From NCBI RefSeq assembly GCF_000018465.1, contig NC_010085.1:390001-422000 (forward strand): a stretch of DNA of 32,000 nucleotides, in the 5' to 3' direction. This stretch comes from Nitrosopumilus maritimus SCM1 (lineage in GTDB: Archaea; Thermoproteota; Nitrososphaeria; Nitrososphaerales; Nitrosopumilaceae). A program made the position numbers and the translations under genes. This document shows, piece by piece, positions 7,883-28,183 of this stretch (position 1 is its first letter; every line of letters starts with the position of its first letter). The notes under the pieces are model-generated. The model ran no database searches. It saw nothing but the letters and a program-made list of their open reading frames with translations, and was not told the DNA's origin.

Positions 7883-7959
7883 TGGTGCAGTTACCGGGAT
7901 TTGAACCCGGGTCACGTACTTGGCAAGCACGAGTACTAACCAGACTGTACTATAACTGC
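7883..7959 (-). tRNA. tRNA-Gly (anticodon GCC), CCA encoded
   Basis: Hand-folded cloverleaf: GCAGTTA/TAACTGC acceptor, GTAC/GTAC D stem, CGTGC-TTGCCAA-GTACG anticodon arm, CCGGG-TTCAAAT-CCCGG T arm, and terminal ACCA. Confidence 0.9.
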
Positions 7960-10164: not shown

Positions 10165-10557
10165 TTATTTACTAATCTTGGAAATCTGAGATATTTTTAC
10201 AATTTCCATTAGATTGTCCATGTCTATTGGTTTGTAAACAATACCATTTACTTTTAGTTTCTTGAGTTTTTCTTCAGTTAATGATGTGACATCTGCAGTT
10301 ACTGCAATTATTACAGCTTTGGAATCTTTTGCACGAATTTTTTTAATTGCATAGAATCCTGAACCATCTGGCATCATCATATCTACAAATACAATATCTG
10401 GATTGTTTGCAAAATAAAGATCAATTGCTTCTTTCCCATTGCCTCCTTTTCCAATTACCTCGATGCCTCTGTCTTCTAGCATTTCACTAAATACATCTAC
10501 TATGTCAGGCTCATCATCAACAACAATTCCTGTTATTCTCTTTGTGGAATCACTCAT
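10165..10557 (-). CDS. Receiver-only (CheY-like) response regulator, RR-A
   Basis: VVDDEPD, FVDMMMPDGSG (phospho-acceptor Asp), IAVTAD and VYKPI motifs. No output domain. Confidence 0.9.
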   Translation of the reverse strand: MSDSTKRITGIVVDDEPDIVDVFSEMLEDRGIEVIGKGGNGKEAIDLYFANNPDIVFVDMMMPDGSGFYAIKKIRAKDSKAVIIAVTADVTSLTEEKLKKLKVNGIVYKPIDMDNLMEIVKISQISKISK

Positions 10558-10566
10558 GATGTTTTT

Positions 10567-10585
10567 ATAACAAAATCTTTGTTAT
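10567..10585. promoter_or_regulatory. Perfect inverted repeat ATAACAAA-ATC-TTTGTTAT in the 34-bp divergent spacer between RR-A and HTH-A
   Basis: Read directly. It occupies more than half of the whole intergenic spacer 10558..10591. Confidence 0.35.
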
Positions 10586-10591
10586 TAAATT

Positions 10592-11197
10592 ATGCCCGGT
10601 GTTGACCGTTTCTTATCTGAATCCTTTGAGATTGCAATCAAGAAGAACCTCAAAGCAGAGGCAGAATATCAGATGAAAAAAACCATGTTTGAAAAATTTG
10701 GTATTTCCATTAGACAATCAATAGAAGACATTGAAAAATTACATCAAGTTCGAAAAGAACTTCTTGGCGAATCTGATTATTCCCAACTAAAAAAATATCT
10801 GAGTAAAATTTGTATTTTTAGAAAATCTGATGATGGAAAATATTACATAATTACAATCTTGGATGACTTTCTTAAAAGAAAATTAATGGATACAATTGGT
10901 GATGATGAATCAAGAAAAGTTCTTACAGCAATGACTGACAAGAATCGTACTACTTCTGATGTTTTAAGATTGAGAAAAATTTCAACAACTTCTGGATATA
11001 GAAAAGTTAATGCACTAATTCGTGATGGATTTTTAATCCAAACAAAACGTAAAATGGTTGAAAACAGACGTCCTGTTGATCAATACACAACATTTTATCA
11101 TAAAATCCTGTTTGAAGTAAAGAAAGATGATCTTTCATTAGAAATATTTGTCACTAAAAAATTATTTGAATCAAGCTCCCTTTTTGATATTCTTTAA
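10592..11197 (+). CDS. Putative DNA-binding protein with C-terminal winged-helix-like region, HTH-A (paralog of 27353..27952)
   Basis: Aligns end to end with HTH-B (MPGVDRFLSESFEIAIKKNL..FEKFGISIRQSIEDIEKL vs MPGLDSLLANSLKESITKDL..FEKYGISFAQSIENFDKL). The HTH-like segment is TTSDVLRLRKISTTSGYRKVNALIRDGFL. Confidence 0.6.
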   Translation: MPGVDRFLSESFEIAIKKNLKAEAEYQMKKTMFEKFGISIRQSIEDIEKLHQVRKELLGESDYSQLKKYLSKICIFRKSDDGKYYIITILDDFLKRKLMDTIGDDESRKVLTAMTDKNRTTSDVLRLRKISTTSGYRKVNALIRDGFLIQTKRKMVENRRPVDQYTTFYHKILFEVKKDDLSLEIFVTKKLFESSSLFDIL

Positions 11198-11254
11198 ACT
11201 GTTTTACTCAAATCAATAATAACATTTTTTAGCTTTGTACTAATTTGTAGAACT

Positions 11255-11536
11255 GTGAACTCAAAAGGAATTGTTGTAATTAGTGTAATTGTAATATCTC
11301 TTGTAGGTATTGCATACATGTCATCTACACAACAGTTTGATGAATCAATGACTCCCTCAATTGAAAGTAATTTATCAGTTGATCATGATACCTCATTGAG
11401 TTTAACTTATCCTGACTCCCCAGTAATATCTCATTCAAATTCTGTTGATGAATCTGATGTAGTTGTTACTGTTGATGAAGATGGAAAAAAACAATACTCA
11501 ATTGAAGTTGGAGACACTCCAATAATTCAAGAATAA
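11255..11536 (+). CDS. Small N-anchored protein S1 with C-terminal VDEDGKKQYSIEVGDTP motif
   Basis: A GTG start gives MNSKGIVVISVIVISLVGIAY, homologous to the S2 N-terminus MNSRTGIFVGLAIAVSVGIAF. It shares a C-terminal motif with S2 and with the giant ORF N-terminus. Confidence 0.65.
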   Translation: MNSKGIVVISVIVISLVGIAYMSSTQQFDESMTPSIESNLSVDHDTSLSLTYPDSPVISHSNSVDESDVVVTVDEDGKKQYSIEVGDTPIIQE

Positions 11537-11559
11537 AAAATAATTTTTAACTAAATATT

Positions 11560-12183
11560 TTATGTTGTATCTGATGTGATGTCAAATGTATATGTAATTT
11601 GTACAGTTTCACCACTGTTTAATGTAACATCTGAAGTATCAATCACTGAAAACAAAATTCCTGAAGCAGTTGCACAATTATTATAATCTGCATCACTTGC
11701 TGCACGATTTGTACATATTCCTATTGAACGAATAGTATCTCCATTAGCTACATTTGTTGAACCAGCTTGAAAAGTCAAAGGACCAACCTGTGCAGTTTGT
11801 GATGATATTGTAACTGAAGTATCTTCTTTACAATTATTTTCTGCAATTGAGTTTCCGCTATCAAATGTTGAAGCTGTATCGCTTTCTGCTGGTGTTTGTG
11901 CTTCATCACTAACACAAATTGCACCTATCTGTGTGTTATCTGATGCACTGTTTGAATCTTGAAATGTTTGTTCCAAGAGAAAAGTTTCACCTGTATCAAC
12001 TAGCCTGTTGTGAACTTGTTGTGTGAAAACATTGTTTCCATTCGCATCTATCTTTTCAATTGTTGCAAACCCGTAAAATTTTTGTTCAAAATCATTTTTT
12101 TCAAAATCAAATGGAATTACAGCTGTTGTAAATACTGTAAAAAGTACTGCGGCACTAATCGTATAGGATGTTCTTTTTTGCAT
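11560..12183 (-). CDS. Secreted 4-Cys protein P1 (207 aa), paralog of 21535..22170
   Basis: Start moved to the Met at 12183, giving a signal-like MQKRTSYTISAAVLFTVFTTAV. The tracked 33-aa extension runs through the promoter. Full-length similarity to P2 with four conserved Cys. Confidence 0.75.
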   Translation of the reverse strand: MQKRTSYTISAAVLFTVFTTAVIPFDFEKNDFEQKFYGFATIEKIDANGNNVFTQQVHNRLVDTGETFLLEQTFQDSNSASDNTQIGAICVSDEAQTPAESDTASTFDSGNSIAENNCKEDTSVTISSQTAQVGPLTFQAGSTNVANGDTIRSIGICTNRAASDADYNNCATASGILFSVIDTSDVTLNSGETVQITYTFDITSDTT

Positions 12184-12210
12184 TATATTTTGTGAAAATC
12201 GAAAATTTAC

Positions 12211-12221
12211 TAATATAGTTA
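12211..12221 (-). promoter_or_regulatory. TATA-like element TAACTATATTA of P1, identical 11-mer upstream of P2 (22195..22205)
   Basis: The plus-strand TAATATAGTTA occurs 28 nt from the P1 ATG and 25 nt from the P2 ATG. Confidence 0.5.
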
Positions 12222-12230
12222 TGGGCGAAC

Positions 12231-12244
12231 TTCCAACTTTGGAA
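12231..12244. promoter_or_regulatory. Inverted repeat TTCCA-ACTT-TGGAA (site 1 of recurrent motif)
   Basis: Perfect 5-bp arms, N4 spacer. It lies 48-61 nt upstream of the P1 ATG, just beyond its TATA box. Confidence 0.5.
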
Positions 12245-12260
12245 ATTTTTTTGTAAAAAT

Positions 12261-12276
12261 TTTCCATTTGTGGAAA
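12261..12276. promoter_or_regulatory. Inverted repeat TTTCCA-TTTG-TGGAAA (site 2)
   Basis: Perfect 6-bp arms, N4 spacer. It lies 43-58 nt upstream of the giant-ORF ATG at 12319. Confidence 0.5.
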
Positions 12277-12318
12277 GTACATTCAAGCCTTTTTAGTCGT
12301 CAAAAAATTTTTTTTTCT

Positions 12319-15300
12319 ATGAAATGGGAGATACCTCTACTGGTAAGTTTCGTATTTTTGCTCGGAATTTTTTCGTCATTTCCCGTCGTTGATAGTAATT
12401 TTACAATTGATGAAAATGGTTTGAAACATTATGTTCTAACTCCTGAAAAAAATATTTCATCATTTGATGTTGTTGCAACGTCTCTTTCTAAATACAATCG
12501 TGAAGTTGATTTTGATGAACAAGATCCGTATTTTGTTTTCTTTTTGTTCGTGTTATTGTTAGTTTTACTGTATCGTAGCAATTTCGTTTTGCAAGTAAAA
12601 CAATCTGTACTAAAAACCTTTGCATCTGATTACATCAATTTGTTTTTGAAAAATAATTTTGCACAAACATTATTTTCAGAGAACAAAATTAATCTAAAAG
12701 AAATTTTTGTTATTTTATCTTCATCAAATACAAAATTACAAAACAATTCAACTGTTTTGTATCGAAATTGTTCTAATGTATTAATAAATTCCAAGAAATT
12801 CTTTGTTTCTAAAAAAATTATCGTTGTTTTGTTGTTGTTTGTTGTTTTAATTGTTCCAGTTTATAATCATGCATATGCAGCCTCTGGTGATATTACAAAA
12901 TCTCTTGTTGATTCATTTGAGTTTGATAATCAAGCAGGTTCATACCCTGATATTATTCAAATAGATTCTAATACATTTGCAATATCTTATCAGGGACAAG
13001 GATCTGGTGTTCTTTCTGGATACATTCAAACTTTTGATATTGATAGTCTAGGAAACATTTCATCACTAAACACATTACAATTTGATCCTGATGCAATTGT
13101 ATACACTGAATTAGTTGCAGTAGATTCAGATACGTTTGCAATTGTTTACAGAAGTACTGATGCTGATGGTTTTATTCATACAGTAGACATTACTGGAGCT
13201 GGTGTAATTACAAACGGAACAAATTATGAATTCGATACTACTGCAGGTACTGATCCTCAAATAGTTGCAGTAGATTCAGATACATTTGCAGTTGTGAATC
13301 AAGGTGGTGGTGCTGATGGTTGGTTGCGAACACTAAACATATCTTCAGATGGACTAACCATTTCAGAAGAAGATAGTTTTGAATTTGATACAAATGAAGG
13401 TAGAGACAATGACATTATACAGGTAGATTCAGACACATTTTTGATTGTGTATAGGGGTGTTGAAGCTGACGGATTTGCAAAAACAATCAACATTTCAACT
13501 GATGGTACGATTAATTCTGTAGAAGACACATTAGAGTTTGAGCCTACCTTTGATGCATATCATAATGCTATTGCCCAGGTAGATTCAGACACATTTGTAG
13601 TTGCATATAGAGACATTGACAGTGATGGTCGACTAGCCACGCTTGATGTTACTAGTTCAGGCTCTATTACTCTAGTTGAGACATATGAATACGACACGAA
13701 CACTGCACAACATCCTGACATCAAGAGATTAGATGACAAATCATTTGTGATTGCATATCAGGGAGCAGGAAGTGATGGATTTATCAAAACAATTCCTATC
13801 ACTGCCTCCGGTAATATCGGAACCGTAACTGATACCTATGAATTTGATACTGGAAACGGTCGTTTCCCATCAATAATCAGTATAGATGGAAATACAGTAG
13901 CAATTGCTAGCCGTGGTGGAGGAAATGATGGTTTCTTGGATACCATATTTATCGATGTTGAACTTGCAGGCACAGATACTCCTTCTTTTGTAGAGGTTGA
14001 TGATTCATCAAAAACTGCCATAATTATGGCTAGTTCTACGCCTGTAGTCGTCAGTGAGGGTCTAAATTCTATAAATCCGGAGTTATTCCCTGCATCCACC
14101 GTTAATCCTACACATGGATTTGAAATGGGAATTTATGCCTCATCCACGCCTATTCCTGCCCATGAAGTGACAATTTCTACTATCAAGACCAATGATACCT
14201 TTGAATTTGACACTGCCGATGCAGAGACACCTGATTTGGTTCAGGTGGACACAGACACGTTTGCAGTAGTATACAAGGGAACTGATAATGATGGATTCAT
14301 CAAAACAGTAGATATCACAAGCACAGGCACGATCACTGACACTGGAAACTCCCTAGAATTTGATACTGCAGATGGATGGACACCAAATATTGTGCCTGTA
14401 GACACTGATACATTTGCAGTTGTGTATAATGGAACTGACAGTGATGGATTCGTTAAAACCTTAAATATTAGTGGAGTAGGTGCGATCACTGACACTGGAA
14501 ACTCCCTAGAATTTGATATCGCAGATGGGCTTTATCCTGATATTGTTGCAGTTGATTCAGATACATTTGCGATCGTATATACTGGAACAGATACTGATGG
14601 ATTCATTAAAACCTTAAATATTAGTGGAGTAGGTGCGATCACTGACACTGGAAACTCCTTAGAATTTGATACTGGAACTGGAATATTTCCTGATATCCTT
14701 GCAGTTGATTCAGACACTTTTGTGATTTCTTACACTGGTAACGGAAATGACGGATTTGTAAAAACGGTTGACATTACTGGCGCAGGTGTAATTAGCAGTG
14801 TAATTGACACCTTGGAATTTGATACATCCACTGCCTATGAAACATCTCTCGTAAAGATTGATGATGACACATTTGCAGTAGCATACAGAGGTCCAGGCTC
14901 TGATGGATTTGTCAAAACATTTGATATTGATAGTTCCGGAAACATCAACAATTCAATCACTGATTCACTTGAGTTTGATACTGGAAACGGCAGAGAGCCT
15001 GACATGGTTAGTCTTGGTTCTGGTAATTATGGAATAGCTTATCGTGGTAATAGTAATGATGGATTTTTTGTAATTGTAACAATTGATGATGCAGGAAACA
15101 TTGGAAACTCTGTTGTTGAATCACTTGAATACAACACATCAAATGGATATTTCCCTAGCTTAATTGGAGTTGATCTTAATACATTTGCAATTGCACATAG
15201 AGGAAATGCTGAAGATGGTTTCATTACTACTATTGACACATCAAACGAATTAGCATTTTCTGATTCAGATACTTTGGATGTTGTAGAATCTGTAGATTTA

Positions 15301-18300
15301 ATTAAAAAATATGCAATATTTGGAACTTCTGCTCCTATATTTGAACATTCAGTAATAACAACTGGCAATTCTATAATCGATGATGCAAATTCAACTCCAC
15401 TAGTAGTTTCTTCTGCTATTACACTAAAAGGATATTTCCTAAATGCAAATTCAACTCCAAATGTTTCTGATTCTGGAAATACTGTTGCACAATATACAAG
15501 AACTGCATCTGATATTTTAGATGTTGCAGAACAAAATACTGAATTTAAAAATTATACTATATCAAATTCAACAACACCCGACATTGTAAGTAGTGGAATA
15601 ATTTCATTTTCTCTTTCAGCAAACTCTACTCCACTTCTAACAAGTAACGCAACATCATCAGCTGACATCTCATCCAACTCTACTCCACTTCTCTCTAGCA
15701 ATGCCACAACTGTTGCAATGTTCGTACTTGATCCATCAACTATTCCATCTGTATCTAGTACTGCAACTGTTGCATTCACTTTGTCAGCAAACTCTACTCC
15801 ACTTCTAACAAGTAACGCAACATCATCAGCTGACATCTCATCCAACTCTACTCCTGTACTATCCAGCAACGCAACATCAACTGTCATGAGAATACTCAAC
15901 GCAACATCCATCCCATCACTATTCAGTAACGCAACATCATCAGCTGACATCTCATCCAACTCTACTCCTGTACTATCCAGCAACGCAACATCAACTGTCA
16001 TGAGAATACTCAACGCAACATCCATCCCATCACTATTCAGTAACGCAACATCATCAGCTGACATCTCATCCAACTCTACTCCTGTACTATCCAGCAACGC
16101 AACATCAACTGTCATGAGAATACTCAACGCAACATCCATCCCATCACTATTCAGTAACGCAACATCATCAGCTGACATCTCATCCAACTCTACTCCTGTA
16201 CTATCCAGCAACGCAACATCAACTGTCATGAGAATACTCAACGCAACATCCATCCCATCACTATTCAGTAACGCAACATCATCAGCTGACATCTCATCCA
16301 ACTCTACTCCTGTACTATCCAGCAACGCAACATCAACTGTCATGAGAATACTCAACGCAACATCCATCCCATCACTATTCAGTAACGCAACATCATCAGC
16401 TGACATCTCATCCAACTCTACTCCTGTACTATCCAGCAACGCAACATCAACTGTCATGAGAATACTCAACGCAACATCCATCCCATCACTATTCAGTAAC
16501 GCAACATCATCAGCTGACATCTCATCCAACTCTACTCCTGTACTATCCAGCAACGCAACATCAACTGTCATGAGAATACTCAACGCAACATCCATCCCAT
16601 CACTATTCAGTAACGCAACATCATCAGCTGACATCTCTGGTTCATCAACACCATTCCTCTCAAGTAACGCAACATCAACTGTCATGAGAATACTCAACGC
16701 AACATCCATCCCATCACTATTCAGTAACGCAACATCATCAGCTGACATCTCATCCAACTCTACTCCTGTACTATCCAGCAACGCAACATCAACTGTCATG
16801 AGAATACTCAACGCAACATCCATCCCATCACTATTCAGTAACGCAACATCATCAGCTGACATCTCTGGTTCATCAACACCATTCCTCTCAAGTAACGCAA
16901 CAGTATCACTATCTGGTTCATCAACACCATTCCTCTCAAGTAACGCAACATCAACTGGAATGTTTGACATCTCATCCAACTCTACTCCATTCCTCTCAAG
17001 TAACGCAACAGTATCACTATCTGGTTCATCAACACCATTCCTCTCAAGTAACGCAACATCAACTGTCATGAGAATACTCAACGCAACATCTGAACCAGTG
17101 ATATCAAGTAACGCTACCACTGTTGCAATGTTCAATCTTAACGCAACATCAATTCCATCACTATTTGGTAACGCAACAGTATCGCTATCTGGATCCTCTA
17201 CTCCTGTACTATCAAGTAACGCAACTTATGGAACACTTGTAGCATCAGCTAACACCACTCCATTCCTCTCAAGTAACGCAACAGTATCACTATCTGGTTC
17301 ATCAACACCATTCCTCTCAAGTAACGCAACATCAACTGTGATGCACATATTATCTGCAAACTCCAGTCCGGTTGTTTCCAGTAATGCAATTACAACTGGA
17401 ATGTTTAACATCTCAGCAAACTCTACTCCTGTACTATCAAGTAACGCAACATCAACTGTCATGAGAATACTTAACGCAACATCTGAACCAGTTCTATCTG
17501 ATGATGCACAGATAACTGGAATGTTTAACATCTCAGCAAACTCTACTCCTGTACTATCAAGTAACGCAACATCAACTGTCATGAGAATACTTAACGCAAC
17601 ATCTGAACCAGTTCTATCTGATGATGCACAGATAACTGGAATGTTTAACATCTCAGCAAACTCTACTCCTGTACTATCAAGCAACGCAACATCAACTGTC
17701 ATGAGAATACTTAACGCAACATCTGAACCAGTTCTATCTGATGATGCACAGATAACTGGAATGTTTAACATCTCAGCAAACTCTACTCCTGTACTATCAA
17801 GCAACGCAACATCAACTGTCATGAGAATACTTAACGCAACATCTGAACCAGTTCTATCTGATGATGCACAGATAACTGGAATGTTTAACATCTCAGCAAA
17901 CTCCACTCCTGTACTATCTGACAATGCTCAAGTCACTGGAATGTTCACCATCAACGCAAACTCCACTCCTGTACTATCTGACAATGCTCAAGTCACTGGA
18001 ATGTTCACCATCAACGCAAACTCCACTCCTGTACTATCTGACAATGCTCAAGTCACTGGAATGTTCACCATCAACGCAAACTCCACTCCTGTACTATCTG
18101 ACAATGCTCAAGTCACTGGAATGTTCACCATCAACGCAAACTCCACTCCTGTACTATCTGACAATGCAACAAGTGATACAGTATTTGCCTTACTAACATC
18201 TGATGCCCCAAGTCTTACAGAATCAATTGATCAAATTGAGAGATATGCAATTAATGCAATAGATGTACCTGTTATTTCAGAATCTGTTGGAAAACCAAAA

Positions 18301-20613
18301 CACTCTAAACTATTGGCTACCTCAACACCTAGAATTACAGAATTTGGATTAATCGCAGGACATTATACACTTGAAACAACTTCGATCCCAGAAATATCTC
18401 ATTCTGGAAATATCCCTCCTAGAATAACATCTGCCAATGTTACATCTACTACTCAAATTGATATTGCTTTTGAACGAAACATAGATCGTAAATCTGTAAA
18501 ACCTGCTAATTTTGTTTTGACCGATCCATCCGCTACAATAAAGGGTGTAAAAACCACAAACAATGTAATAACTTTAAGACTAGATTCGGCAATCACATCT
18601 GGCCAAACCCCAACAATTGCAATTGCTGGTAATGCTGTCAAAGATACGGATGGAAACACTGTAGATAGTGTAACTGTTACTTCGGTTGACAAAGTTCCAC
18701 CAAAAGTAAAGAAAGCTTATGCTACAACAAAGTCTAGTATAGTGATTATATTTGACAAGAATGTTACTTCACAACTATCTGATTATTCCTCTCTACAAAT
18801 TCCAACAGGAACTTCCAAGACAATCTCTGGTCATACTGCTTCAGATAATGTGGTGACCTTAACAGTAAATTCTGCAGATATAACTGCACGTGCTCATGGC
18901 ACTATTACGATTTCATCTGGTCTGACTGACACAAATGGTAATTCATTTAACACTAACCACAATCCTGTATCTGTAATATCCAATATTGAGGAAGCTCCTG
19001 TAGAATTAGATGAAGATTTTACAGATTTGGTAATTACAACTGAAGAAATTGAAATTAAAGAAATTCTGGTCAAAACAAATGTCAAGGCAAAACTTGATCT
19101 TAGTAAATCTCCAACAAAAACTACCGTAACAGAAAACAGTGTAACTAAGAATAGAGTTCAAATTACAAATGAAATGAAAATCACTTCCTCAGATGGAACT
19201 GATGAAGAAGTTCAGATAGTTATTCCAAAAGATGTTTTGGTATCTGGTCCTCAAGATAAATTTACTGGCTCCATAGATTTACCTGAACCAAAGACAAACA
19301 ATTCATGTCCAATAAACCCTGATGGTAGTCAAATAGTAAGTTGTATTGCTATAGGATTGTCTGATGACGAATTAACTTTCAACAAGGCTGTAAAGATTAC
19401 AATTCCTGGCGAAGGTTCTTTGACACCTTATTACAGTACTGATAATACTACTTGGAATGCGATATCTACACTTTGTGATGCTGCTAACACTGCAGAAGTC
19501 AATGGAGTCTCAATATCTAGTGATGGTACAAGAGAATGTTACTTTGTAGATGGATCTGATATGATAATCTGGACTACTCACTTTACAGTATTTGGTACAT
19601 TATCCTCTACCTCGACTAGTTCTAGTTCAGGAGGGGGTTCCAGTGGTGATAATTCTGCTCCTTCTATAACTACTAGTATTGGACCTTCTATTACTGATAG
19701 TGGTCTTGGAGGAATTATAGGAAATACTGATCAACCATTAGTTCCTGGAGCAGAAATCAAAAACTATCCACTTGTATTTGATGGAATTGGCTATGATGAG
19801 AATAGCTTTAATTCTGTTCATACTGCAGTCATTGAAACAGAGCAACCCTTGAATGTAATTTTGAGTCTTTATGAAAATTCAGGTGCTCAAAATATTGAAC
19901 ATGTAGAAATGTATGTCAATCATTTCGGTCCTAGAGTCCTTAATGACAGAACTGAGACTGCTATTATCTATGACAAATTTACTGGCATTGAAATTCTTGA
20001 CCCATATGGTCTAATTTCTGATGCGACTGTATTGCCTACACTTTTAGATACTCAATCTCAATTTTATTTCCAAGTGTTCTTTGAAGAAGAAATTGAACAA
20101 TCTGATGTCTTGTTTAGAGTATGGGACAAAAATAGAAATTCAGTTGAATTACATTTGTCTGATGCATTAATGGTGGTAAAAGGAGAATCATCCTCTGAAG
20201 AACGCAATGTCACTGAGTCCGGAATTGTCTCTCCAACAGACCCATCAGAATCTGAAATTGTCTCTCCAGCAGACCCATCAGAATCTGAAATTGTCTCTCC
20301 AGCAGACCCATCAGAATCTGAAATCATATCTACAGAACTTCCACCTGAATCAGAAAAAATTAAAATCCCATCTGAACCTGAACTTGGAACGTATGTAGGA
20401 ATTCCTATGGACCCAGAACCTGGTATTGATGTAAACTTGCAGATGGACCCAGAACCTGGTATTGATGTAAACTTGCAGATGGACCCAGAACCTGGTATTG
20501 ATGTAAACTTGCAGATGGACCCAGAACCTGGTATTGATGTAAACAAACCAAAATCTTTGTTGGATTCAATATCTGAATTCTTTGAGGTTCTCACAAAACT
20601 GTTGAAATTCTAA
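12319..20613 (+). CDS. Giant (~2,764 aa) N-terminally membrane-anchored surface protein: 3 hydrophobic segments, two 7-repeat propeller-like blocks, ~1,000-aa N-X-S/T-rich repeat stalk, two Ig-like domains, Cys-containing globular domains, acidic C-terminal micro-repeats
   Basis: A single uninterrupted frame of 8.3 kb in stop-rich AT-rich DNA. The first ATG is at 12319 (the track used TTG at 12268, which lies inside a promoter palindrome). Domain calls come from internal repeats read in the translation. Confidence 0.85.
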   Translation: MKWEIPLLVSFVFLLGIFSSFPVVDSNFTIDENGLKHYVLTPEKNISSFDVVATSLSKYNREVDFDEQDPYFVFFLFVLLLVLLYRSNFVLQVKQSVLKTFASDYINLFLKNNFAQTLFSENKINLKEIFVILSSSNTKLQNNSTVLYRNCSNVLINSKKFFVSKKIIVVLLLFVVLIVPVYNHAYAASGDITKSLVDSFEFDNQAGSYPDIIQIDSNTFAISYQGQGSGVLSGYIQTFDIDSLGNISSLNTLQFDPDAIVYTELVAVDSDTFAIVYRSTDADGFIHTVDITGAGVITNGTNYEFDTTAGTDPQIVAVDSDTFAVVNQGGGADGWLRTLNISSDGLTISEEDSFEFDTNEGRDNDIIQVDSDTFLIVYRGVEADGFAKTINISTDGTINSVEDTLEFEPTFDAYHNAIAQVDSDTFVVAYRDIDSDGRLATLDVTSSGSITLVETYEYDTNTAQHPDIKRLDDKSFVIAYQGAGSDGFIKTIPITASGNIGTVTDTYEFDTGNGRFPSIISIDGNTVAIASRGGGNDGFLDTIFIDVELAGTDTPSFVEVDDSSKTAIIMASSTPVVVSEGLNSINPELFPASTVNPTHGFEMGIYASSTPIPAHEVTISTIKTNDTFEFDTADAETPDLVQVDTDTFAVVYKGTDNDGFIKTVDITSTGTITDTGNSLEFDTADGWTPNIVPVDTDTFAVVYNGTDSDGFVKTLNISGVGAITDTGNSLEFDIADGLYPDIVAVDSDTFAIVYTGTDTDGFIKTLNISGVGAITDTGNSLEFDTGTGIFPDILAVDSDTFVISYTGNGNDGFVKTVDITGAGVISSVIDTLEFDTSTAYETSLVKIDDDTFAVAYRGPGSDGFVKTFDIDSSGNINNSITDSLEFDTGNGREPDMVSLGSGNYGIAYRGNSNDGFFVIVTIDDAGNIGNSVVESLEYNTSNGYFPSLIGVDLNTFAIAHRGNAEDGFITTIDTSNELAFSDSDTLDVVESVDLIKKYAIFGTSAPIFEHSVITTGNSIIDDANSTPLVVSSAITLKGYFLNANSTPNVSDSGNTVAQYTRTASDILDVAEQNTEFKNYTISNSTTPDIVSSGIISFSLSANSTPLLTSNATSSADISSNSTPLLSSNATTVAMFVLDPSTIPSVSSTATVAFTLSANSTPLLTSNATSSADISSNSTPVLSSNATSTVMRILNATSIPSLFSNATSSADISSNSTPVLSSNATSTVMRILNATSIPSLFSNATSSADISSNSTPVLSSNATSTVMRILNATSIPSLFSNATSSADISSNSTPVLSSNATSTVMRILNATSIPSLFSNATSSADISSNSTPVLSSNATSTVMRILNATSIPSLFSNATSSADISSNSTPVLSSNATSTVMRILNATSIPSLFSNATSSADISSNSTPVLSSNATSTVMRILNATSIPSLFSNATSSADISGSSTPFLSSNATSTVMRILNATSIPSLFSNATSSADISSNSTPVLSSNATSTVMRILNATSIPSLFSNATSSADISGSSTPFLSSNATVSLSGSSTPFLSSNATSTGMFDISSNSTPFLSSNATVSLSGSSTPFLSSNATSTVMRILNATSEPVISSNATTVAMFNLNATSIPSLFGNATVSLSGSSTPVLSSNATYGTLVASANTTPFLSSNATVSLSGSSTPFLSSNATSTVMHILSANSSPVVSSNAITTGMFNISANSTPVLSSNATSTVMRILNATSEPVLSDDAQITGMFNISANSTPVLSSNATSTVMRILNATSEPVLSDDAQITGMFNISANSTPVLSSNATSTVMRILNATSEPVLSDDAQITGMFNISANSTPVLSSNATSTVMRILNATSEPVLSDDAQITGMFNISANSTPVLSDNAQVTGMFTINANSTPVLSDNAQVTGMFTINANSTPVLSDNAQVTGMFTINANSTPVLSDNAQVTGMFTINANSTPVLSDNATSDTVFALLTSDAPSLTESIDQIERYAINAIDVPVISESVGKPKHSKLLATSTPRITEFGLIAGHYTLETTSIPEISHSGNIPPRITSANVTSTTQIDIAFERNIDRKSVKPANFVLTDPSATIKGVKTTNNVITLRLDSAITSGQTPTIAIAGNAVKDTDGNTVDSVTVTSVDKVPPKVKKAYATTKSSIVIIFDKNVTSQLSDYSSLQIPTGTSKTISGHTASDNVVTLTVNSADITARAHGTITISSGLTDTNGNSFNTNHNPVSVISNIEEAPVELDEDFTDLVITTEEIEIKEILVKTNVKAKLDLSKSPTKTTVTENSVTKNRVQITNEMKITSSDGTDEEVQIVIPKDVLVSGPQDKFTGSIDLPEPKTNNSCPINPDGSQIVSCIAIGLSDDELTFNKAVKITIPGEGSLTPYYSTDNTTWNAISTLCDAANTAEVNGVSISSDGTRECYFVDGSDMIIWTTHFTVFGTLSSTSTSSSSGGGSSGDNSAPSITTSIGPSITDSGLGGIIGNTDQPLVPGAEIKNYPLVFDGIGYDENSFNSVHTAVIETEQPLNVILSLYENSGAQNIEHVEMYVNHFGPRVLNDRTETAIIYDKFTGIEILDPYGLISDATVLPTLLDTQSQFYFQVFFEEEIEQSDVLFRVWDKNRNSVELHLSDALMVVKGESSSEERNVTESGIVSPTDPSESEIVSPADPSESEIVSPADPSESEIISTELPPESEKIKIPSEPELGTYVGIPMDPEPGIDVNLQMDPEPGIDVNLQMDPEPGIDVNLQMDPEPGIDVNKPKSLLDSISEFFEVLTKLLKF
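12913..13970 (+). repeat. Seven tandem ~51-aa repeats (propeller-like block 1)
   Basis: Consensus .[FY]EFDT..G..P.I..VDSDTFA[IV]VY.G...DGF.KT..I...G.I, counted 7 times before a linker. Confidence 0.7.
14198..15245 (+). repeat. Seven tandem ~51-52-aa repeats (propeller-like block 2)
   Basis: Same consensus, 7 copies. Copies 2-4 share long identical DNA stretches (for example ...ttaaaaccttaaatattagtggagtaggtgcgatcactgacactggaaactcc at about 14453 and 14609, 156 nt apart). Confidence 0.7.
15811..16836 (+). repeat. In-frame tandem array, 114-nt (38-aa) period, 9 units, first 7 apparently identical
   Basis: The unit SNATSSADISSNSTPVLSSNATSTVMRILNATSIPSLF starts at 15811, 15925, 16039 and so on (period verified at several points). 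Unit 8 carries the GSSTPFL variant. Confidence 0.9.
17401..17880 (+). repeat. In-frame tandem array, 120-nt (40-aa) period, 4 units
   Basis: The unit MFNISANSTPVLSSNATSTVMRILNATSEPVLSDDAQITG repeats at 17401, 17521, 17641 and 17761. The only difference I noticed is a synonymous agt/agc change. Confidence 0.9.
17901..18167 (+). repeat. In-frame tandem array, 60-nt (20-aa) period, ~4.4 units
   Basis: The unit NSTPVLSDNAQVTGMFTINA. The lines at 17941, 18001 and 18061 are identical 60-mers. Confidence 0.9.
18415..18980 (+). other. Two consecutive Ig-like (bacterial Big_5/SbsA-like) domains within the giant ORF
   Basis: Pattern ...ITSANVTSTTQIDIAFERNIDRKSVKPANFVLTD...ITLRLDSAI...IAIAGNAVKDTDGNTV, then a second copy, KKAYATTKSSIVIIFDKNV...VTLTVNSADI...ITISSGLTDTNGNSF. 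Recognised by eye only. Confidence 0.5.
20227..20325 (+). repeat. 33-nt x3 in-frame micro-repeat (VSP[TA]DPSESEI)
   Basis: Read directly; units start at 20227, 20260 and 20293. Confidence 0.85.
20407..20546 (+). repeat. 36-nt x~3.9 in-frame micro-repeat (MDPEPGIDVNLQ)
   Basis: Read directly; units start at 20407, 20443, 20479 and 20515. Confidence 0.85.
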
Positions 20614-20756
20614 GTTTGTGAAAATAAGATATGGATAAACTGGTAGTTGACATCTTGTTATCCCTATATTGTGAATTCGTTAATGAATTTGGTTACAAAA
20701 ATCACGTGCTTAAAAAATGACAAATCGCATTTAAATAATGCCGATGGTCCTTACTG

Positions 20757-21020
20757 ATGATGAATAGTAGGACTGGAATCTTTGTTGGACTTGCAATCGC
20801 AGTATCTGTTGGAATTGCATTTGCAGCTTCATATTCTTCTGTGAATACATCTGACTCTGAAAAATTTGAATCAGTTGTAGATATGACCGTTGAACCTAGC
20901 AGTCCTCATATTGATGATGGTGCACTTGTTGGTATTGAAAATGAAAATTATGCTGTAAATGAAGATGGTAAACGTCATTATACTTTAGTGGCAGAAACAT
21001 CTCCTGTAGTTTCTCCTTAA
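20757..21020 (+). CDS. Small N-anchored protein S2 with C-terminal VNEDGKRHYTLVAETSP motif
   Basis: Paralog of S1 (shared N-terminus and C-terminal motif). A TTTAAATA box lies about 20-27 nt upstream of the ATG. Confidence 0.65.
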   Translation: MMNSRTGIFVGLAIAVSVGIAFAASYSSVNTSDSEKFESVVDMTVEPSSPHIDDGALVGIENENYAVNEDGKRHYTLVAETSPVVSP

Positions 21021-21034
21021 ATATAGTCTAAAAG

Positions 21035-21481
21035 TTATGACTTAGAATCTGTTATTTCTTCCCATGGTGAAACAAAATATTCGTATTTGTTTGGGTGTTT
21101 TGGTGATTCTTCTACCACAAACCAAACATTGAGTCTAGATTTGTCTCCCTCTAATAGATCACATGGTATTGATAATGTTTCATCATTTCTATCATACTTT
21201 AGTTCTTCAATGATATTTTCAGATTTTACAAAATATTGATGGTCGACTATCTTATCAAAATTTTTAGCAGAAACTATACAATTGTCGTTCTCTGTATCTA
21301 AAATTTCAATTGGGATGGATGAACGAACAATATTTCTTTCAATCACTTCCTCCCAAACAACTGGTGTGTATTGGTTAAAGAACAAAAACACAAGACTATT
21401 TTCATTTGTAGCAAAAATCAAAATTAATCCCGCTGCTATTGCCAATCCTATTAAGACGATTTTGTCATTTTTTGAGCTCAA
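21035..21481 (-). CDS. N-terminally anchored hypothetical protein (148 aa)
   Basis: MSSKNDKIVLIGLAIAAGLILIF is a TM segment followed by a ~115-aa soluble domain with 2 Cys. No motif recognised. Confidence 0.55.
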   Translation of the reverse strand: MSSKNDKIVLIGLAIAAGLILIFATNENSLVFLFFNQYTPVVWEEVIERNIVRSSIPIEILDTENDNCIVSAKNFDKIVDHQYFVKSENIIEELKYDRNDETLSIPCDLLEGDKSRLNVWFVVEESPKHPNKYEYFVSPWEEITDSKS

Positions 21482-21534
21482 CGTACTGTCCTCTTACTTG
21501 GTACTAATAAAAATATAAAAAAAATGTATTTTGA

Positions 21535-22170
21535 CTAAGTTCCATCTGACTGTAGATTAAATGTGTATGTGATATCTACTGTCTCACCACTTGCTAAAGT
21601 AACATCTGATGTGTCAACTACAGCAAACAATGTTGTTGTACAATCACGAACATCATTATCTGAAGAGTCTGCATCACAAATTCCTATTGCTTCAACAGTG
21701 CTGCCTGCAAATAGGTTGTTACCAGTACCAGTACCTGCTGTAAATGTTAATGGTCCTATTGTTGCAATTTGAGAAGTACTGTCAACAGAACCATCTGTTT
21801 TACAGTTTTCTTCATCATCAGCACCACCTTCTGCTGCATCATGGTCTGTGTTGAATGTAGTGTTTGAGGTTGATTCAGCATATGATTCTGCAGCTGTTGC
21901 AGTTGTAAGGCAGATTGCACCAATTTGTGTAGCGTCAGTACCAATATCTGTTACTCCGGTAAATGCATTAGCAATTAGAAGATCTTCACCTTCATCAAAC
22001 AATTGATTGTGTACTGTTTGTGAAAGCATTTCATTTCCATTTGCATCGTGATATGTCATTGTGGCTTGTCCGTATAGGTTAAAGCCATCGTTAGTCATTG
22101 ATTGTGTTCCTGCGGGAATTACTAGAATTGCAATTAATCCTAGTAGTCCCATAGAAGCTATCTTGTACAT
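21535..22170 (-). CDS. Secreted 4-Cys protein P2 (211 aa), paralog of P1
   Basis: Signal peptide MYKIASMGLLGLIAILVIPAG. Blocks conserved with P1: DANGN, VHN.L.D.GE, TQIGAIC, NCK.D.SV, GPLTF.AG, IGIC, DTSDVTL.SGETV.ITYTF. Confidence 0.75.
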   Translation of the reverse strand: MYKIASMGLLGLIAILVIPAGTQSMTNDGFNLYGQATMTYHDANGNEMLSQTVHNQLFDEGEDLLIANAFTGVTDIGTDATQIGAICLTTATAAESYAESTSNTTFNTDHDAAEGGADDEENCKTDGSVDSTSQIATIGPLTFTAGTGTGNNLFAGSTVEAIGICDADSSDNDVRDCTTTLFAVVDTSDVTLASGETVDITYTFNLQSDGT

Positions 22171-22212
22171 TAAACAAAAAACTTGTACTGTTGTTAATAT
22201 AGTTAATTTCTA

Positions 22213-22230
22213 TTTCCCATTGATGGAAAA
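22213..22230. promoter_or_regulatory. Inverted repeat TTTCCCA-TTGA-TGGAAAA (site 3, one arm mismatch)
   Basis: It lies 43-60 nt upstream of the P2 ATG, the same position relative to the shared TATA 11-mer as site 1 at P1. Confidence 0.45.
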
Positions 22231-22262
22231 ATCCAATCTGTGGCTAAAAATTATTTTTCAAA

Positions 22263-22284
22263 TATTTCCCAACATTGGGAAATA
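22263..22284. promoter_or_regulatory. Inverted repeat TATTTCCCA-ACAT-TGGGAAATA (site 4, perfect 9-bp arms)
   Basis: Read directly. It sits in the P2/kinase divergent region, 85-106 nt upstream of the kinase ATG. Confidence 0.5.
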
Positions 22285-22368
22285 CTTCTGAGTTTAATTT
22301 TGAAAAATATGTTTCATTTTTTTTGAAAAATAATTCAAGATAAATAACATTGATGTAGATTTTTTTTA

Positions 22369-24171
22369 ATGAAAATAAAGTCAAAACTATTTTTTGGTTT
22401 TGCAGTAGTTGTATCAATCACATTATTTTTAGGAATATTGACAAACTCTCAATCAAATATTGCGTCAGATGATTTCAAATCCATTGCCGAACGCGATCTT
22501 TTAGTTATACAAAATGCTGAAAAACTACAAAGACTTGCTGTAGATTCTGAGAATGGTCAAAGAGGATTTATCATTACTGGCAATGAATCATTTCTGGAAC
22601 CATACAATAGAGGTGTAGATGAATTCTTTGTTTTACTTGAAGAAGAAAAAAACCTGGTGTCTTACAATCCATCACAAGTAGAAAAATTAGAACATATTTC
22701 TCAACTATTTTCTGATTGGATAGAATCTGCTGGTTCTCCTGAAATTGAACTTGCAAGACAAATCCATTCTTCCCAAGATGATGCTCTGGAATCCATATTG
22801 TCTAATGAATCTGATATAATTTTAGATGAAATATATCAAATAATTTTGTTATTGGAAGGAAATTTACGAGATTCTGAAAATGTGGATGGATTTTTGCTAC
22901 TTGGAAAAATCAAGGCAGATATCTATGATACTGAGGTATCTCAACGAGAATATTTGATCTCAGGAAACGAAGATTTTCTTGTCTCATTTAATAGTGTCAA
23001 AATAGAATTACGTGAAAATATTCAGAATTTAGAAAATATTCTAAAAGATGATGAAGAGAACCTCCAGTTGATTTACTCCATTGGTAAACTATATCAAAAA
23101 TGGGATCAAGAAGTCGTTTATCCCAACATTGAGTCTAGAAGAAATATTGTCGAAAATTACAATTTGAATGAAGCCTCAATCCTACTTGAAAAAGAAACTG
23201 GAAAGAGAATTCTTGATGAGATAAGAACGGAATTTTCTGAATTTATTCAAATTGAAAATGAAAACACACAACAACGATTGGAAAACTCTTTGAATAATCA
23301 AGAACTTGTTCGAAATGTAATCATTATTGTGCTTGTTGCTAGTGTCGTATCTGCAGTGGTTTTGGCATTTCTTATCCTAAATTCTGTTTTAAACCCTTTA
23401 TCAAAATTAGAAAAAGTCATTCAACAGTTCAAAGAAGGAGATTATGCCCAAAAAATAGATATCAATTCTAATGATGAATTGGGAGATTTTTCAAAATCAT
23501 TTGATGCGATTAGAGAAATTTTAATCAAAAAAGAAAAACTCAAAAACATTGGTGAGCTGGCAACTCGACTCGCTCATGATTTGCGAAATCCCCTAGCTGT
23601 TATTCAGGGTGCAGTAAATTTGATGAAAACTGATTTGCAAGAAAAAGATGAAAGTCTTGATAAACGCTTTAGAATGATTGATGCGGCAATTTTGAGAATG
23701 ACTCATCAAATCAATGACGTAATGGATTTTGTACGAGTTTCAAATCTTCAAATCGAAACTCATTCCTTATTGGAACTCTTACAGTCCTCCATATCTAGAA
23801 CAACTAAAAATGATTCAATTACAATTGAATTGCCTGAAAACGACATAAAACTACGATGTGATGCCCATAAACTGGATATTTTGTTTGTAAATTTACTATC
23901 TAACGCAATTGATGCTGTTAAAGAAAATGGAACAATCAAAATCCGCTTTTTTGATGAAACGTCTCATGTGAAGATAGAGCTTGAAGACTCTGGATCTCCA
24001 ATCCCTCCTAACATTCTTGAAGAAATGTTTGAACCATTGTTTACTACAAAACAAGTTGGTACTGGTTTAGGGCTTGCAAGCTGTAAAAATATTGTAGAAC
24101 AACATCGTGGTGAAATTTCAGCAAAAACCAATCCTACTGTCATATCTCTAACTTTATCAAAGACTCTGTAA
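22369..24171 (+). CDS. Sensor histidine kinase: TM - extracellular CHASE3-like domain - TM - HAMP - HisKA - HATPase_c
   Basis: CHASE3-type signature ENGQRGFIITGNESFLEPY (with a second half, SQREYLISGNEDFLVSF). Second TM IIIVLVASVVSAVVLAFLIL. H-box LATRLAHDLRNPL, N-box LLSNAIDAV, G-boxes EDSGSPIP and GTGLGLASC. Confidence 0.9.
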   Translation: MKIKSKLFFGFAVVVSITLFLGILTNSQSNIASDDFKSIAERDLLVIQNAEKLQRLAVDSENGQRGFIITGNESFLEPYNRGVDEFFVLLEEEKNLVSYNPSQVEKLEHISQLFSDWIESAGSPEIELARQIHSSQDDALESILSNESDIILDEIYQIILLLEGNLRDSENVDGFLLLGKIKADIYDTEVSQREYLISGNEDFLVSFNSVKIELRENIQNLENILKDDEENLQLIYSIGKLYQKWDQEVVYPNIESRRNIVENYNLNEASILLEKETGKRILDEIRTEFSEFIQIENENTQQRLENSLNNQELVRNVIIIVLVASVVSAVVLAFLILNSVLNPLSKLEKVIQQFKEGDYAQKIDINSNDELGDFSKSFDAIREILIKKEKLKNIGELATRLAHDLRNPLAVIQGAVNLMKTDLQEKDESLDKRFRMIDAAILRMTHQINDVMDFVRVSNLQIETHSLLELLQSSISRTTKNDSITIELPENDIKLRCDAHKLDILFVNLLSNAIDAVKENGTIKIRFFDETSHVKIELEDSGSPIPPNILEEMFEPLFTTKQVGTGLGLASCKNIVEQHRGEISAKTNPTVISLTLSKTL

Positions 24172-24188
24172 TTGATAGGTTTGGGACT

Positions 24189-24422
24189 TTAGGCATTTTC
24201 AGACAATTTTCTGATATGGCTTTTTATTGATTGCTCACTTGCCAGATTTAATGCTCTTTGCAACTCTTTTTGATATGCTTCAACATTTTTCTGATTTCCT
24301 TTAATTATCTCACATTCTTCAACTAGTGGCAGTGACTGAAAATTCTTGTATTGTTCATATGTGACGGTACAAGTATAATGATTGTCTTCCTCTTTGAATC
24401 TATATTTTATTTTAAATGCCAT
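24189..24422 (-). CDS. Small hypothetical protein (77 aa), tandem paralog of 24519..24758
   Basis: Shared pattern [IR]KY[RK]FK....Y.C.VTY.QY.NF..L....ECEI. Confidence 0.55.
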   Translation of the reverse strand: MAFKIKYRFKEEDNHYTCTVTYEQYKNFQSLPLVEECEIIKGNQKNVEAYQKELQRALNLASEQSIKSHIRKLSENA

Positions 24423-24518
24423 AACATATGAGCCTCATATTAACATATTTAGTTTCGCTATTAATTAACTTGTGCTATTAATTATACTTGCACTTTATTC
24501 TTTTTTTTGAGAATGTAG

Positions 24519-24758
24519 CTAGACGTATTTTTCAGGACATGACAGTTTCTTGATGGGTGTTAACTCGTTTTTACATGCCATGTATAATGCCTCTTCTATT
24601 TCATTTTGCATACTTTGCTGTAATACTTCATCCTTGTTTGTTATTTCACATTCATCAATTGCAGATAAATTTCTAAAATTGATGTATTGTGGGTATGTTA
24701 CTGCACAAGAGTAGGACTGAGGATCGCCTTTGAACTTATATCTTATCCTCAATGGCAT
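24519..24758 (-). CDS. Small hypothetical protein (79 aa), tandem paralog of 24189..24422
   Basis: See the paralog. Both have TATA-like AT-rich upstream regions. Confidence 0.55.
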   Translation of the reverse strand: MPLRIRYKFKGDPQSYSCAVTYPQYINFRNLSAIDECEITNKDEVLQQSMQNEIEEALYMACKNELTPIKKLSCPEKYV

Positions 24759-26150: not shown

Positions 26151-26241
26151 GTGAATTTACTACTATTTCAATTTTTGGCAAATTATTAGGATATAGATAT
26201 ATGCTTATTCCCATTATTGGAACTCATGGGTCAAATCAATA

Positions 26242-27952: not shown

Positions 27953-28159
27953 ATACAAATTCATTGTTACAGATTTTGGAATAGAGAAATAACTGATTTT
28001 AATTCATTATCTGATTCCATCTAATCTAACACAAAACTATCCTAATTAGATACCTGAAATTCCTAAATTCAATCAAATATTGTTGAATTCTTAAGATTAT
28101 ACCGTATGAAACCAATAATCTATTACTACGCAGTAAAAAATGACTAACGGTTAAATATC

Positions 28160-28177
28160 ATTTCCAGATATGGAAAT
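28160..28177. promoter_or_regulatory. Inverted repeat ATTTCCA-GATA-TGGAAAT (site 6, perfect 7-bp arms)
   Basis: It lies 7-24 nt upstream of the RR-B ATG, downstream of a TTAAATAT box. That is an operator-like position over the expected transcription start. Confidence 0.5.
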
Positions 28178-28183
28178 AATACC

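Follow-up and report, generated by a model that had tools for sequence, protein, structure and literature searches.

A conserved S-P-Q gene cassette associated with giant variable surface proteins in Nitrosopumilales

We analysed a stretch of 32,000 nucleotides of the Nitrosopumilus maritimus SCM1 genome (NC_010085.1, positions 390,001 to 422,000; the window), in which a gene for a giant surface protein is bracketed by small genes encoding proteins that we call S, P and Q. There is good support for S-P-Q as a genuine, conserved extracytoplasmic gene cassette, so far undescribed, of ammonia-oxidising Thaumarchaeota (Nitrosopumilales), and for its non-random association with large variable surface proteins. 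Equally well supported, as predicted sequence features, are a peptide motif common to the cassette and to a dedicated N-terminal leader of the giants, and a putative operator common to the cassette and the giant gene. On the basis of the adjacency, the common peptide motif and the common control site, cassette and giant proteins probably act jointly at the cell surface. Nitrosopumilales rank among the most abundant microbes of the ocean, and their cell surface beyond the S-layer is almost unknown. Their giant hypervariable surface proteins are presumed to be virus targets and to mediate attachment. Three large families of ‘hypothetical proteins’ thus gain a genomic context.

Composition and conservation of the S-P-Q cassette

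The survey covered 8 genome loci and 80 metagenome loci encoding P, with a few more obtained by exact look-up, giving about 90 related Nitrosopumilales loci. These P-encoding comparison loci carry identifiers in the range L001-L099, L001 being the metagenome-assembled genome (MAG) NZ_OZ253550, and segments of S, P, Q and giant sequence were mapped onto them. A first-pass annotation of the window had described a duplicated S and P gene pair on the two flanks of the giant gene, with a protein of 148 amino acids (aa) as a separate extra. The open reading frames (ORFs) that it listed are present where it had placed them, and S and P are both real and recurrent, but the actual unit is a triad in which the 148-aa protein, Q, is the third and near-obligate member. 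On the right flank lie S2 (20757-21020, + strand, 87 aa), Q (21035-21481, -) and P2 (21535-22170, -, 211 aa), P2 being the first gene of a P2-Q pair. The left flank carries S1 (11255-11536, +, 93 aa) and P1 (11560-12183, -, 207 aa), and Q is gone from this copy. Across loci, 43 of the 47 P genes with enough flank have Q a short distance downstream on the same strand; the four that lack it belong to a single orthologous group, made up of P1 in the window, L005, L007 and L033. S adjoins about 30 of 35 evaluable cassettes (tallied from the locus tables), either upstream on the same strand as S-P-Q (e.g. L011, L023, L039, L051, L065 and L076) or convergent and downstream of Q (e.g. L002, L004, L036 and L073).

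The bracketing of the giant gene on both flanks holds in the window, but it reflects synteny inherited among three closely related Nitrosopumilus genomes. Two complete Nitrosopumilus MAG chromosomes, NZ_OZ253671 and NZ_OZ253550, share the gene order of the window, each with a giant gene between two P paralogs that are 12-15 kb apart. Because the synteny is inherited, we count the bracketing as one event and take independent support from more distant loci. There, P and S recur beside large surface-protein genes in many divergent Nitrosopumilales lineages, in line with the positional association expected in the first-pass annotation, but P also occurs without S, Q or a giant. Of about 18 evaluable lineages, at least 13 have a large secreted protein with repeats, immunoglobulin-like (Ig) or lectin domains encoded no more than about 5 kb from the cassette. 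These neighbours include proteins of 1845 aa in L051 (Laminin_G_3 and MG2), >1024 aa in L071 (Laminin_G_3 and MG2, plus Filamin), >1021 aa in L039, >1221 aa in L060 (Big_5), >800 aa each in L062, L065 and L080, and 804 aa in L036 (beta-propeller and PKD/Ig). Two proteins of 2242 and 3183 aa lie directly downstream of a P anchored by a transmembrane (TM) helix in L099.

P1 and P2 are predicted to be secreted beta-sandwich proteins with a Sec-type N-terminus. As had been proposed, they are paralogs over their full length (44% identity, E 3e-45), and their four conserved cysteines are invariant in 28 family members (C87, C123, C165 and C177 in P2 numbering). The most conserved stretch is Q-T-V-H-N-Q-L-x-D-x-G-E. 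With P2 as query we retrieved 180 relatives, all unnamed, and a P profile gave 178 matches among 1.84 billion cluster representatives (representatives at 50% identity). The source names and titles seen for these relatives were all Nitrosopumilus, Thaumarchaeota or Cenarchaeum, and the family appears to be small and narrow. Pfam returned only sub-threshold noise for P, NCBIfam and PADLOC returned nothing, and an hmmsearch with the P family alignment against 177,635 PDB sequences gave no matches at E<=10. The earlier description of S and P as unclassifiable thus stands, since neither has a match in Pfam, NCBIfam, PADLOC or the PDB and neither maps to a characterised family. Membership in a known defence system was likewise rejected, PADLOC having returned no match. 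P2 is 67-73% identical between the window and its sister loci L001 and L002, compared with 78-79% for Q, 84-90% for the neighbouring kinase and 85-93% for P1, and it may be under diversifying selection.

An AlphaFold2 (AF2) model of P2, calculated from a 28-sequence alignment, gave a beta-sandwich with a predicted local distance difference test score (pLDDT) of 70 and a predicted template-modelling score of 0.68. Foldseek comparison of this model with the PDB gave nothing convincing, the best match being a 953-aa chain of the HFTV1 tail model (9h4p_BD, E 0.017), for which the HFTV1 structure paper gives no domain-level explanation. Against BFVD, Foldseek gave 20 matches at E<=1e-3 (best 1.5e-7), with TM-scores of 0.43-0.66 normalised on the target. 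The majority are uncharacterised tailed-virus proteins of about 150-215 aa, some of them from the haloarchaeal viruses HHTV-1 and HGTV-1; two annotated podovirus tail fibres and a few lipothrixvirus proteins are also among them. P1 showed a weak full-length match to phrog_5417, a family of unknown function (E 7.5e-6), and P2 matched no phrog. We conclude with moderate confidence, because the pLDDT of the query model is 70, that the predicted P fold is common to small tail-associated viral proteins (phrog_5417 and the BFVD cluster). The P gene itself we regard as cellular, since no relative was found in the 2.9 million viral contigs of IMG/VR. A tblastn search of a phage collection gave one marginal match (E 0.06), in a crAss-like phage amid unannotated genes.

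Several P homologs (P0228, P0231, P0218, P0219, P0210 and L099 8001-8747) are not secreted but anchored in the membrane by a TM helix at the N-terminus, which a linker of about 100 aa joins to P. One of these linkers holds an S-like ‘FYVDGNGDYQEI’ segment, and this protein may be a natural fusion of anchor and P. At least five P-like genes are found in Cenarchaeum symbiosum A (DP000238; L095 5792-8816, L097/L098). Three stand in tandem, and the beta-sandwich of several is interrupted by large insertions; one gene diverges from AglB/STT3, which encodes the oligosaccharyltransferase. Neither Q nor S was detected nearby. No P or Q domains were found inside giants; the lone P match in a long ORF is a start-codon artefact on a high-GC contig.

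Q has a predicted N-terminal membrane anchor and a compact ectodomain of about 90 aa, and its gene lies directly downstream of P2. It contains two invariant cysteines and a KYEYF.T.W tail, and its 21 homologs are all unnamed. The AF2 model has pLDDT >90 over residues ~50-140 and matched no fold in the PDB; Pfam gave only noise for Q, and NCBIfam and PADLOC gave no match. On account of its invariant residues we considered a Cys-His-Asp hydrolase and rejected it, since the two cysteines are more simply explained as a disulfide and no fold matched. The invariant cysteine pairs and hydrophobic N-termini of P and Q fit an extracytoplasmic location. In the two lineages examined in which P lacks an adjacent Q, C. 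symbiosum and L099, neither an S protein nor the leader motif was found. This hints that Q may be the partner of the S-type motif.

S1 and S2 share an N-terminal hydrophobic segment and a C-terminal motif, as had been noted (26% identity, E 2e-7). S1 has an acidic, Ser-rich linker and ends in the motif VVTVDEDGKKQYSIEVGDTPIIQE; the N-terminal segment of S2 ends in AFA|AS and its C-terminal motif is NYAVNEDGKRHYTLVAETSPVVSP. In total, 43 distinct S proteins, S1 among them, were found adjoining P genes. They are 76-128 aa long and consist of the hydrophobic segment, which may be an anchor or a cleaved signal peptide, a Ser/Glu/Asp-rich linker of 27-80 aa (mean net charge -10), and the nearly invariant motif [FY][FY]-I-D-E-[DN]-G-x-K-[HR]-Y-x-I-x-[AV]-x-D-[SA]-P-x-L-x-[DE]. 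A 24-position hidden Markov model (HMM) built from 35 non-redundant S tails recovered S1 and S2 at about 1e-11 each. NCBIfam gave nothing for S1 and noise for S2, and PADLOC gave nothing.

A leader motif and a control site common to cassette and giant gene

The giant ORF is listed as 12268-20613 (+), and its start is most likely the ATG at 12319 (MKWEIPLL...) rather than the TTG at 12268, which gives a protein of 2764 aa. The first-pass annotation had recognised the S motif behind the first hydrophobic segment of this protein. It is present at residues 27-40 (domain E 7e-5 against 3,547 ORFs), but only as the first half of the S tail, positions 1-14 of the HMM, corresponding to the putative hairpin F-x-I-DENG-x-K-HY-x-L. 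The HMM, built from S tails only, recovers the giant leaders, and beyond these its matches at E<=0.02 among the 3,547 ORFs were S proteins and one weak stalk segment in L065. A possible origin of the S tail as a copy of the giant stalk repeat was rejected, the stalk matches being non-significant (domain E >1 except 0.021 in L065). A possible mimicry of an N-terminal hairpin of P by the S hairpin was likewise rejected, the S-motif HMM having no match to P ORFs.

The leader (12319-12933, +) comprises about 205 aa: TM1, the S-like motif NFTIDENGLKHYVLTPE (nt 12397-12447), TM2, a basic loop of about 75 aa, and TM3, which ends in AYA|AS, a predicted signal-peptidase-like site. The window has no start codon ahead of TM3, and in L060 the leader ORF runs uninterrupted for >1,221 aa; the leader is thus part of the giant polypeptide. 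We found such leaders in 12 loci from five lineages (window/L005/L007/L033; L006/L031/L056; L060/L073; L076; L075/L087), each with TM1 followed by [DN]-x-N-F-x-x-D-E-N-G-x-[KR]-H-Y-x-[LM]-x-P-E and then ...R-Y-[NDE]...D. After the motif, four of the five lineages have TM2, the ~75-aa basic loop and then TM3, which resembles a signal peptide (AYA|A or VYA|A); the L075/L087 proteins pass straight from motif to passenger. Passenger sequences are mutually unrelated across lineages, and the leader-bearing gene is divergent from P or S-P-Q in all five. Between the window and the sister genomes L005 and L007 the leader is 96-97% identical and the passenger merely 33-77%. The leader gave no match above cut-off in Pfam, NCBIfam or PADLOC. 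A 191-aa leader query against a database of 5.8 billion proteins also gave no match, probably as an artefact of word index and composition.

The passenger (12934-20613, +) consists of about 17 copies of a repeat of about 48 aa (consensus FEFDT..P.I..VDSDTFA..Y.G..DGF), a sequon-rich Ser/Thr stalk and C-terminal PE-rich repeats. Within the stalk (giant residues 1130-2000; window 15268-18300), 74 N-x-S/T sites occur in 870 aa, or 8.5 per 100 aa, compared with a mean of 0.44 per 100 aa in nine other window proteins. The program TRF resolved the stalk DNA into near-identical tandem repeats of 114 bp x9.3 (97% matches) and 120 bp x4.4 (99%), and it also found a repeat of 36 bp x3.8 (100%) in the passenger. 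Long antisense ORFs in the stalk (e.g. 15552-17135, 527 aa) are by-products of these repeats and not genes. Pfam gave no match to the giant at E<=0.01, Ig families included. The C-terminus ends ...KPKSLLDSISEFFEVLTKLLKF, with no TM helix, no NCBIfam or Pfam sorting domain and no archaeosortase PGF-CTERM/PEF-CTERM signal. In L033 (556-2631), the leader and first repeats are fused in-frame to the C-terminal half of the histidine kinase in an ORF of 691 aa. The fusion implies that everything between, from the remaining giant through S2, Q and P2 to the N-terminal part of the kinase, has been deleted, and hence that the island can be lost.

The common promoter architecture claimed for P1 and P2 was borne out: both have TAACTATATTA about 35 nt before the ATG and two TYCCA-N4-TGGRA palindromes. 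P1 and the giant gene diverge from a region of 135 bp that holds the TATA-like TAACTATATTA (12211-12221, -) and palindromes at 12231-12244 and 12262-12275, the control region spanning 12211-12275. This layout is kept in L005, L007 and L033 and partly in L006 and L031. The region between P2 and the divergent kinase gene (22195-22280), with TAACTATATTA at 22195-22205 (-) and palindromes at 22215-22228 and 22267-22280, is kept in L001, L002, L028 and L092. A fifth palindrome (26209-26222) lies upstream of an EamA-family transporter gene (26242-27243) and a sixth (28162-28175) directly upstream of a receiver gene (28184-28570). The window has six occurrences where 0.18 are expected, a count never reached in 100 shuffles. 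The palindrome also stands 45-150 bp before the first gene of the cassette (S or P) in at least 14 other loci. Since it also precedes the transporter and receiver genes, the set suggests a small regulon with possible autoregulation.

Signalling genes accompany the cassette, and the window shows the features of a two-component-regulated gene set: a kinase and receivers are adjacent and a common cis element marks the promoters. The membrane sensor histidine kinase divergent from P2 (22369-24171, +, 600 aa; NCBIfam kinase matches down to 8e-42) has an ortholog in L009 with CHASE3, HisKA and HATPase_c domains, and the kinase adjoins P2 in L001, L002, L009, L028 and L092. Behind it lie two proteins of 77 and 79 aa (24189-24422 and 24519-24758, both -; 38% identical; Pfam NitrOD1 E 6e-12 for the 79-aa protein) of the type named for NitrOD1, ‘Nitrosopumilus output domain 1’, a thaumarchaeal signalling output domain. 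On the other side of the giant, a receiver-only response regulator (10165-10557, -, 130 aa; Pfam Response_reg E 2.5e-23), the paralog of that at 28184-28570, adjoins a putative winged helix-turn-helix (wHTH) regulator (10592-11197, +, 201 aa; NCBIfam Sta1 E 9e-4 and Lrs14 E 7e-3, both below cut-off). We speculate that the 201-aa protein is a candidate binder of the palindrome. In L004, L029, L036 and L047, three receiver genes lie upstream of P. The receiver and wHTH-like pair is itself repeated about 16 kb apart, at 10165-11197 and 27353-28570 (39% and 30% identity), with the wHTH paralog at 27353-27952 beside the second receiver gene, and forms a second, outer bracketing layer.

Possible roles of the cassette

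We rate the S-P-Q module as categorically new in its components and architecture, since it falls within none of the known systems with which it was compared, belongs to no curated family, and literature searches returned no description of the P, Q or S families. From motif sharing, predicted topology, gene order and co-regulation we infer a role in docking, assembly or processing. The reading that we favour, at somewhat below even confidence, is that the S-type hairpin would be a docking epitope for Q and/or P, with P-Q assembling at the base of the giant and on S under two-component control. P would be exported by Sec and fold into a disulfide-bonded beta-sandwich, and the N-terminal TM helix of Q would hold Q at the outer face of the membrane. 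S would present its C-terminal peptide, conserved over 24 residues, at the end of a flexible acidic tether 27-80 aa long, and the giants would display the hairpin half of the same peptide directly behind their first TM segment. This hairpin would dock onto the ectodomains of Q and/or P, and P-Q would then assemble on S and at the giant's membrane-proximal base, where it would hold the surface fibre in place, organise it or mature it. One dimeric regulator acting on TYCCA-N4-TGGRA would switch P1, the giant, P2 and the sensor kinase together under two-component control.

More ambitiously, and with distinct doubt, S-P-Q could be a new archaeal surface-display apparatus, in which Q and P form a membrane-proximal socket that captures a dedicated beta-hairpin ‘handle’ (F-x-I-DENG-x-K-HY), carried by S as a free tether protein and by interchangeable giant fibres at their N-terminus. 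Such an apparatus would parallel sortase/LPXTG or chaperone-usher systems in role, while being unrelated to both and specific to ammonia-oxidising archaea. If this is true, hypervariable passengers could be swapped while one anchoring and regulatory chassis stays in place. The partner cassette, the N-terminal ‘handle’ and the common operator provide testable entry points to fibre retention, expression switching and passenger exchange.

Several observations weigh against docking of the giants by P-Q. No giant lies near the cassettes of L023, where both flanks are visible, or of L011 and L025, where one flank is; the giants of L051 and L099 have an ordinary signal peptide and no S-like leader; and P stands alone in C. 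symbiosum, beside AglB or in paralog arrays. The loci were gathered via P, so that the association of giant and P is ascertained through P. Cleavage of TM3 at AYA|A, if it occurs, would separate the passenger from the part that carries the motif and complicate simple anchoring. The confidence of the P2 model is also only moderate (pLDDT 70).

Alternatively, S-P-Q could be an independent envelope module and a mere co-resident of the giants in a flexible, hypervariable surface island where genes of both kinds build up, with the hairpin a generic membrane-proximal structural element. The region is prone to rearrangement, as seen in an inversion in L001, the deletion fusion in L033 and the near-identical tandem repeats, and some cassettes lack a giant, some giants lack the motif, and P can stand alone. 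We nevertheless consider co-residence unlikely: the divergent layout of giant leader and P is kept in five lineages even where P is just 35-66% identical to P1, giant and P1 genes share one 135-bp control region with two cassette palindromes, and the motif match is specific among 3,547 ORFs. P, with Q and S, might instead be a lectin- or chaperone-like accessory of glycosylation, acting beside the oligosaccharyltransferase, at the outer face of the membrane, on sequon-rich giants. This role is conceivable because of the sequon richness of the stalk (8.5 per 100 aa, as against 0.44 in the nine other proteins), and one C. symbiosum P gene is divergent from AglB/STT3. In L051, a gene of the glycosyltransferase 2 (GT2) plus GtrA/DPMS-TM type (dolichol-phosphate-sugar-synthase type; 11181-12353) abuts S-P-Q, and genes of its size and end sequences abut the cassette in L070 (111-1271) and L071 (571-1719). 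The P fold also appears to resemble viral tail-associated proteins, which may often be glycan binders. Such adjacency is found in only three to four lineages, we identified no motif for sugar binding in P, this role leaves the S-type motif of the leaders unexplained, and N-glycosylation was not detected in cultured Nitrosopumilus piranensis (PMC12153357). We regard a glycosylation accessory as improbable.

Very improbable, in our view, is that S is secreted as a pro-peptide, with the adjacent CHASE3 kinase sensing its conserved C-terminal 24-mer as a signal and P and Q processing or binding it. S is built like a precursor, with a signal peptide, a variable pro-region and a conserved C-terminal peptide; several S proteins have A-x-A-like sites, such as AFA|AS in S2; and kinase, receivers and NitrOD1 proteins cluster with the cassette, with a palindrome preceding a receiver gene. 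The hairpin, however, is also built into the N-terminus of giant structural proteins, and most cassettes of other lineages lack an adjacent kinase. Thaumarchaeal genomes have many such receiver genes, which makes adjacency weak evidence. A small surface filament, with S as a pilin-like subunit or base, P as the polymerising subunit and the giants as alternative tip or base joined by strand exchange of the hairpin, seems to us slightly less probable still. Many S N-termini do have [KR]-G followed by a hydrophobic stretch, as in class III signal peptides. Subunits of archaeal threads and bundling pili are small secreted beta-sandwiches, which P would resemble. The Gly is not conserved, however (NSKVVGG, NRKVVGG), an assembly ATPase, a PilC-like protein and a prepilin peptidase are absent from the neighbourhoods, Foldseek found no pilin or thread subunit in the PDB, and the S-motif HMM has no match to P. 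To the least probable of these explanations, that P is a captured viral tail protein serving as receptor mimic or decoy, or a prophage remnant, we assign only a slight chance. The 20 BFVD matches at E<=1e-3, with haloarchaeal tailed viruses and two podovirus tail fibres among them, the match of P1 to phrog_5417 (E 7.5e-6) and the HFTV1 tail chain as best PDB match point that way. The viral collections tell against it, with no relative in 2.9 million contigs and one marginal tblastn match in phages, as do the lack of a PADLOC match, the cellular and syntenic flanks, and the Sec signal and invariant disulfide cysteines of P, which suit a resident envelope protein of the host.

Comparison with known systems places VARTIG of Thermococcales as the closest concept, with its logic inverted. 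VARTIG loci encode arCOG07710 multi-Ig proteins whose C-terminal Ig domain is hypervariable, and the genes downstream of them vary as well (Makarova et al. 2021, PMC8416519), and the authors found no counterpart outside Thermococcales (PMC8416519). Both are lineage-specific archaeal loci that combine a large hypervariable secreted protein with small secreted or membrane proteins that are uncharacterised. The two are unrelated in sequence, Pfam gives the window giant no Ig-family match at E<=0.01, and here the small genes P, Q and S are constant whereas the whole passenger varies.

In bacteria, an N-terminal module holds giant repeat adhesins such as LapA, with LapG and LapD, and RTX adhesins, with small envelope partners encoded nearby and control by signal transduction. 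The likeness of the giant and S-P-Q to these systems would be a functional analogy only: the present case concerns a single-membrane archaeon, with no type I secretion system, LapG-type protease, LapD or homology. The only positive relation to known systems appears to be the predicted fold of P, which, with similar lengths, recalls uncharacterised viral tail-associated proteins (phrog_5417; HHTV-1 R4T6G8, HGTV-1 R4TMF4; the ‘tail fiber’ proteins of Xanthomonas phi31 and Stenotrophomonas Ponderosa). P differs from these in its Sec signal peptide, its four invariant cysteines and its chromosomal location, syntenic in cellular genomes. A fold known only from uncharacterised viral tail-associated proteins would thus be tied to a cellular envelope protein.

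S resembles archaeal type IV pilins and other class III signal-peptide proteins in having a short basic N-terminus, in many cases with a final Gly, ahead of about 18 hydrophobic residues; its ectodomain, a disordered tether with the 24-aa motif, is unlike the pilin beta-sandwich. We rejected S as a type IV pilin, since the Gly before the hydrophobic stretch is not conserved and the assembly machinery is absent nearby. The class III motif [KR]-[GA] is not conserved among the 43 S N-termini (variants NSKVVGG, NRKVVGG and NSKVISA), and no PilB-type ATPase, PilC-type membrane protein or prepilin peptidase was found in any annotated neighbourhood or ORF map.

Rearrangements and other features of the region

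The wider region is flanked by tRNA-Gly(GCC) at 7883-7959 and tRNA-Glu(CTC) at 28604-28681, and no integrase or mobile-element gene was seen. Relative to the window (20757-24758), L002 and L009, a block containing the 77-aa NitrOD1 gene, the kinase, P2 and Q is inverted in L001 (7425-11412). Inspection of the window for inverted repeats at the breakpoints of this inversion gave no convincing candidates. In one lineage, represented by L036 (9474-10649) and L004 (6037-7212), a secreted protein with matrixin-type (Peptidase_M10) and Big_7 domains is encoded about 1 kb past P-Q-S.

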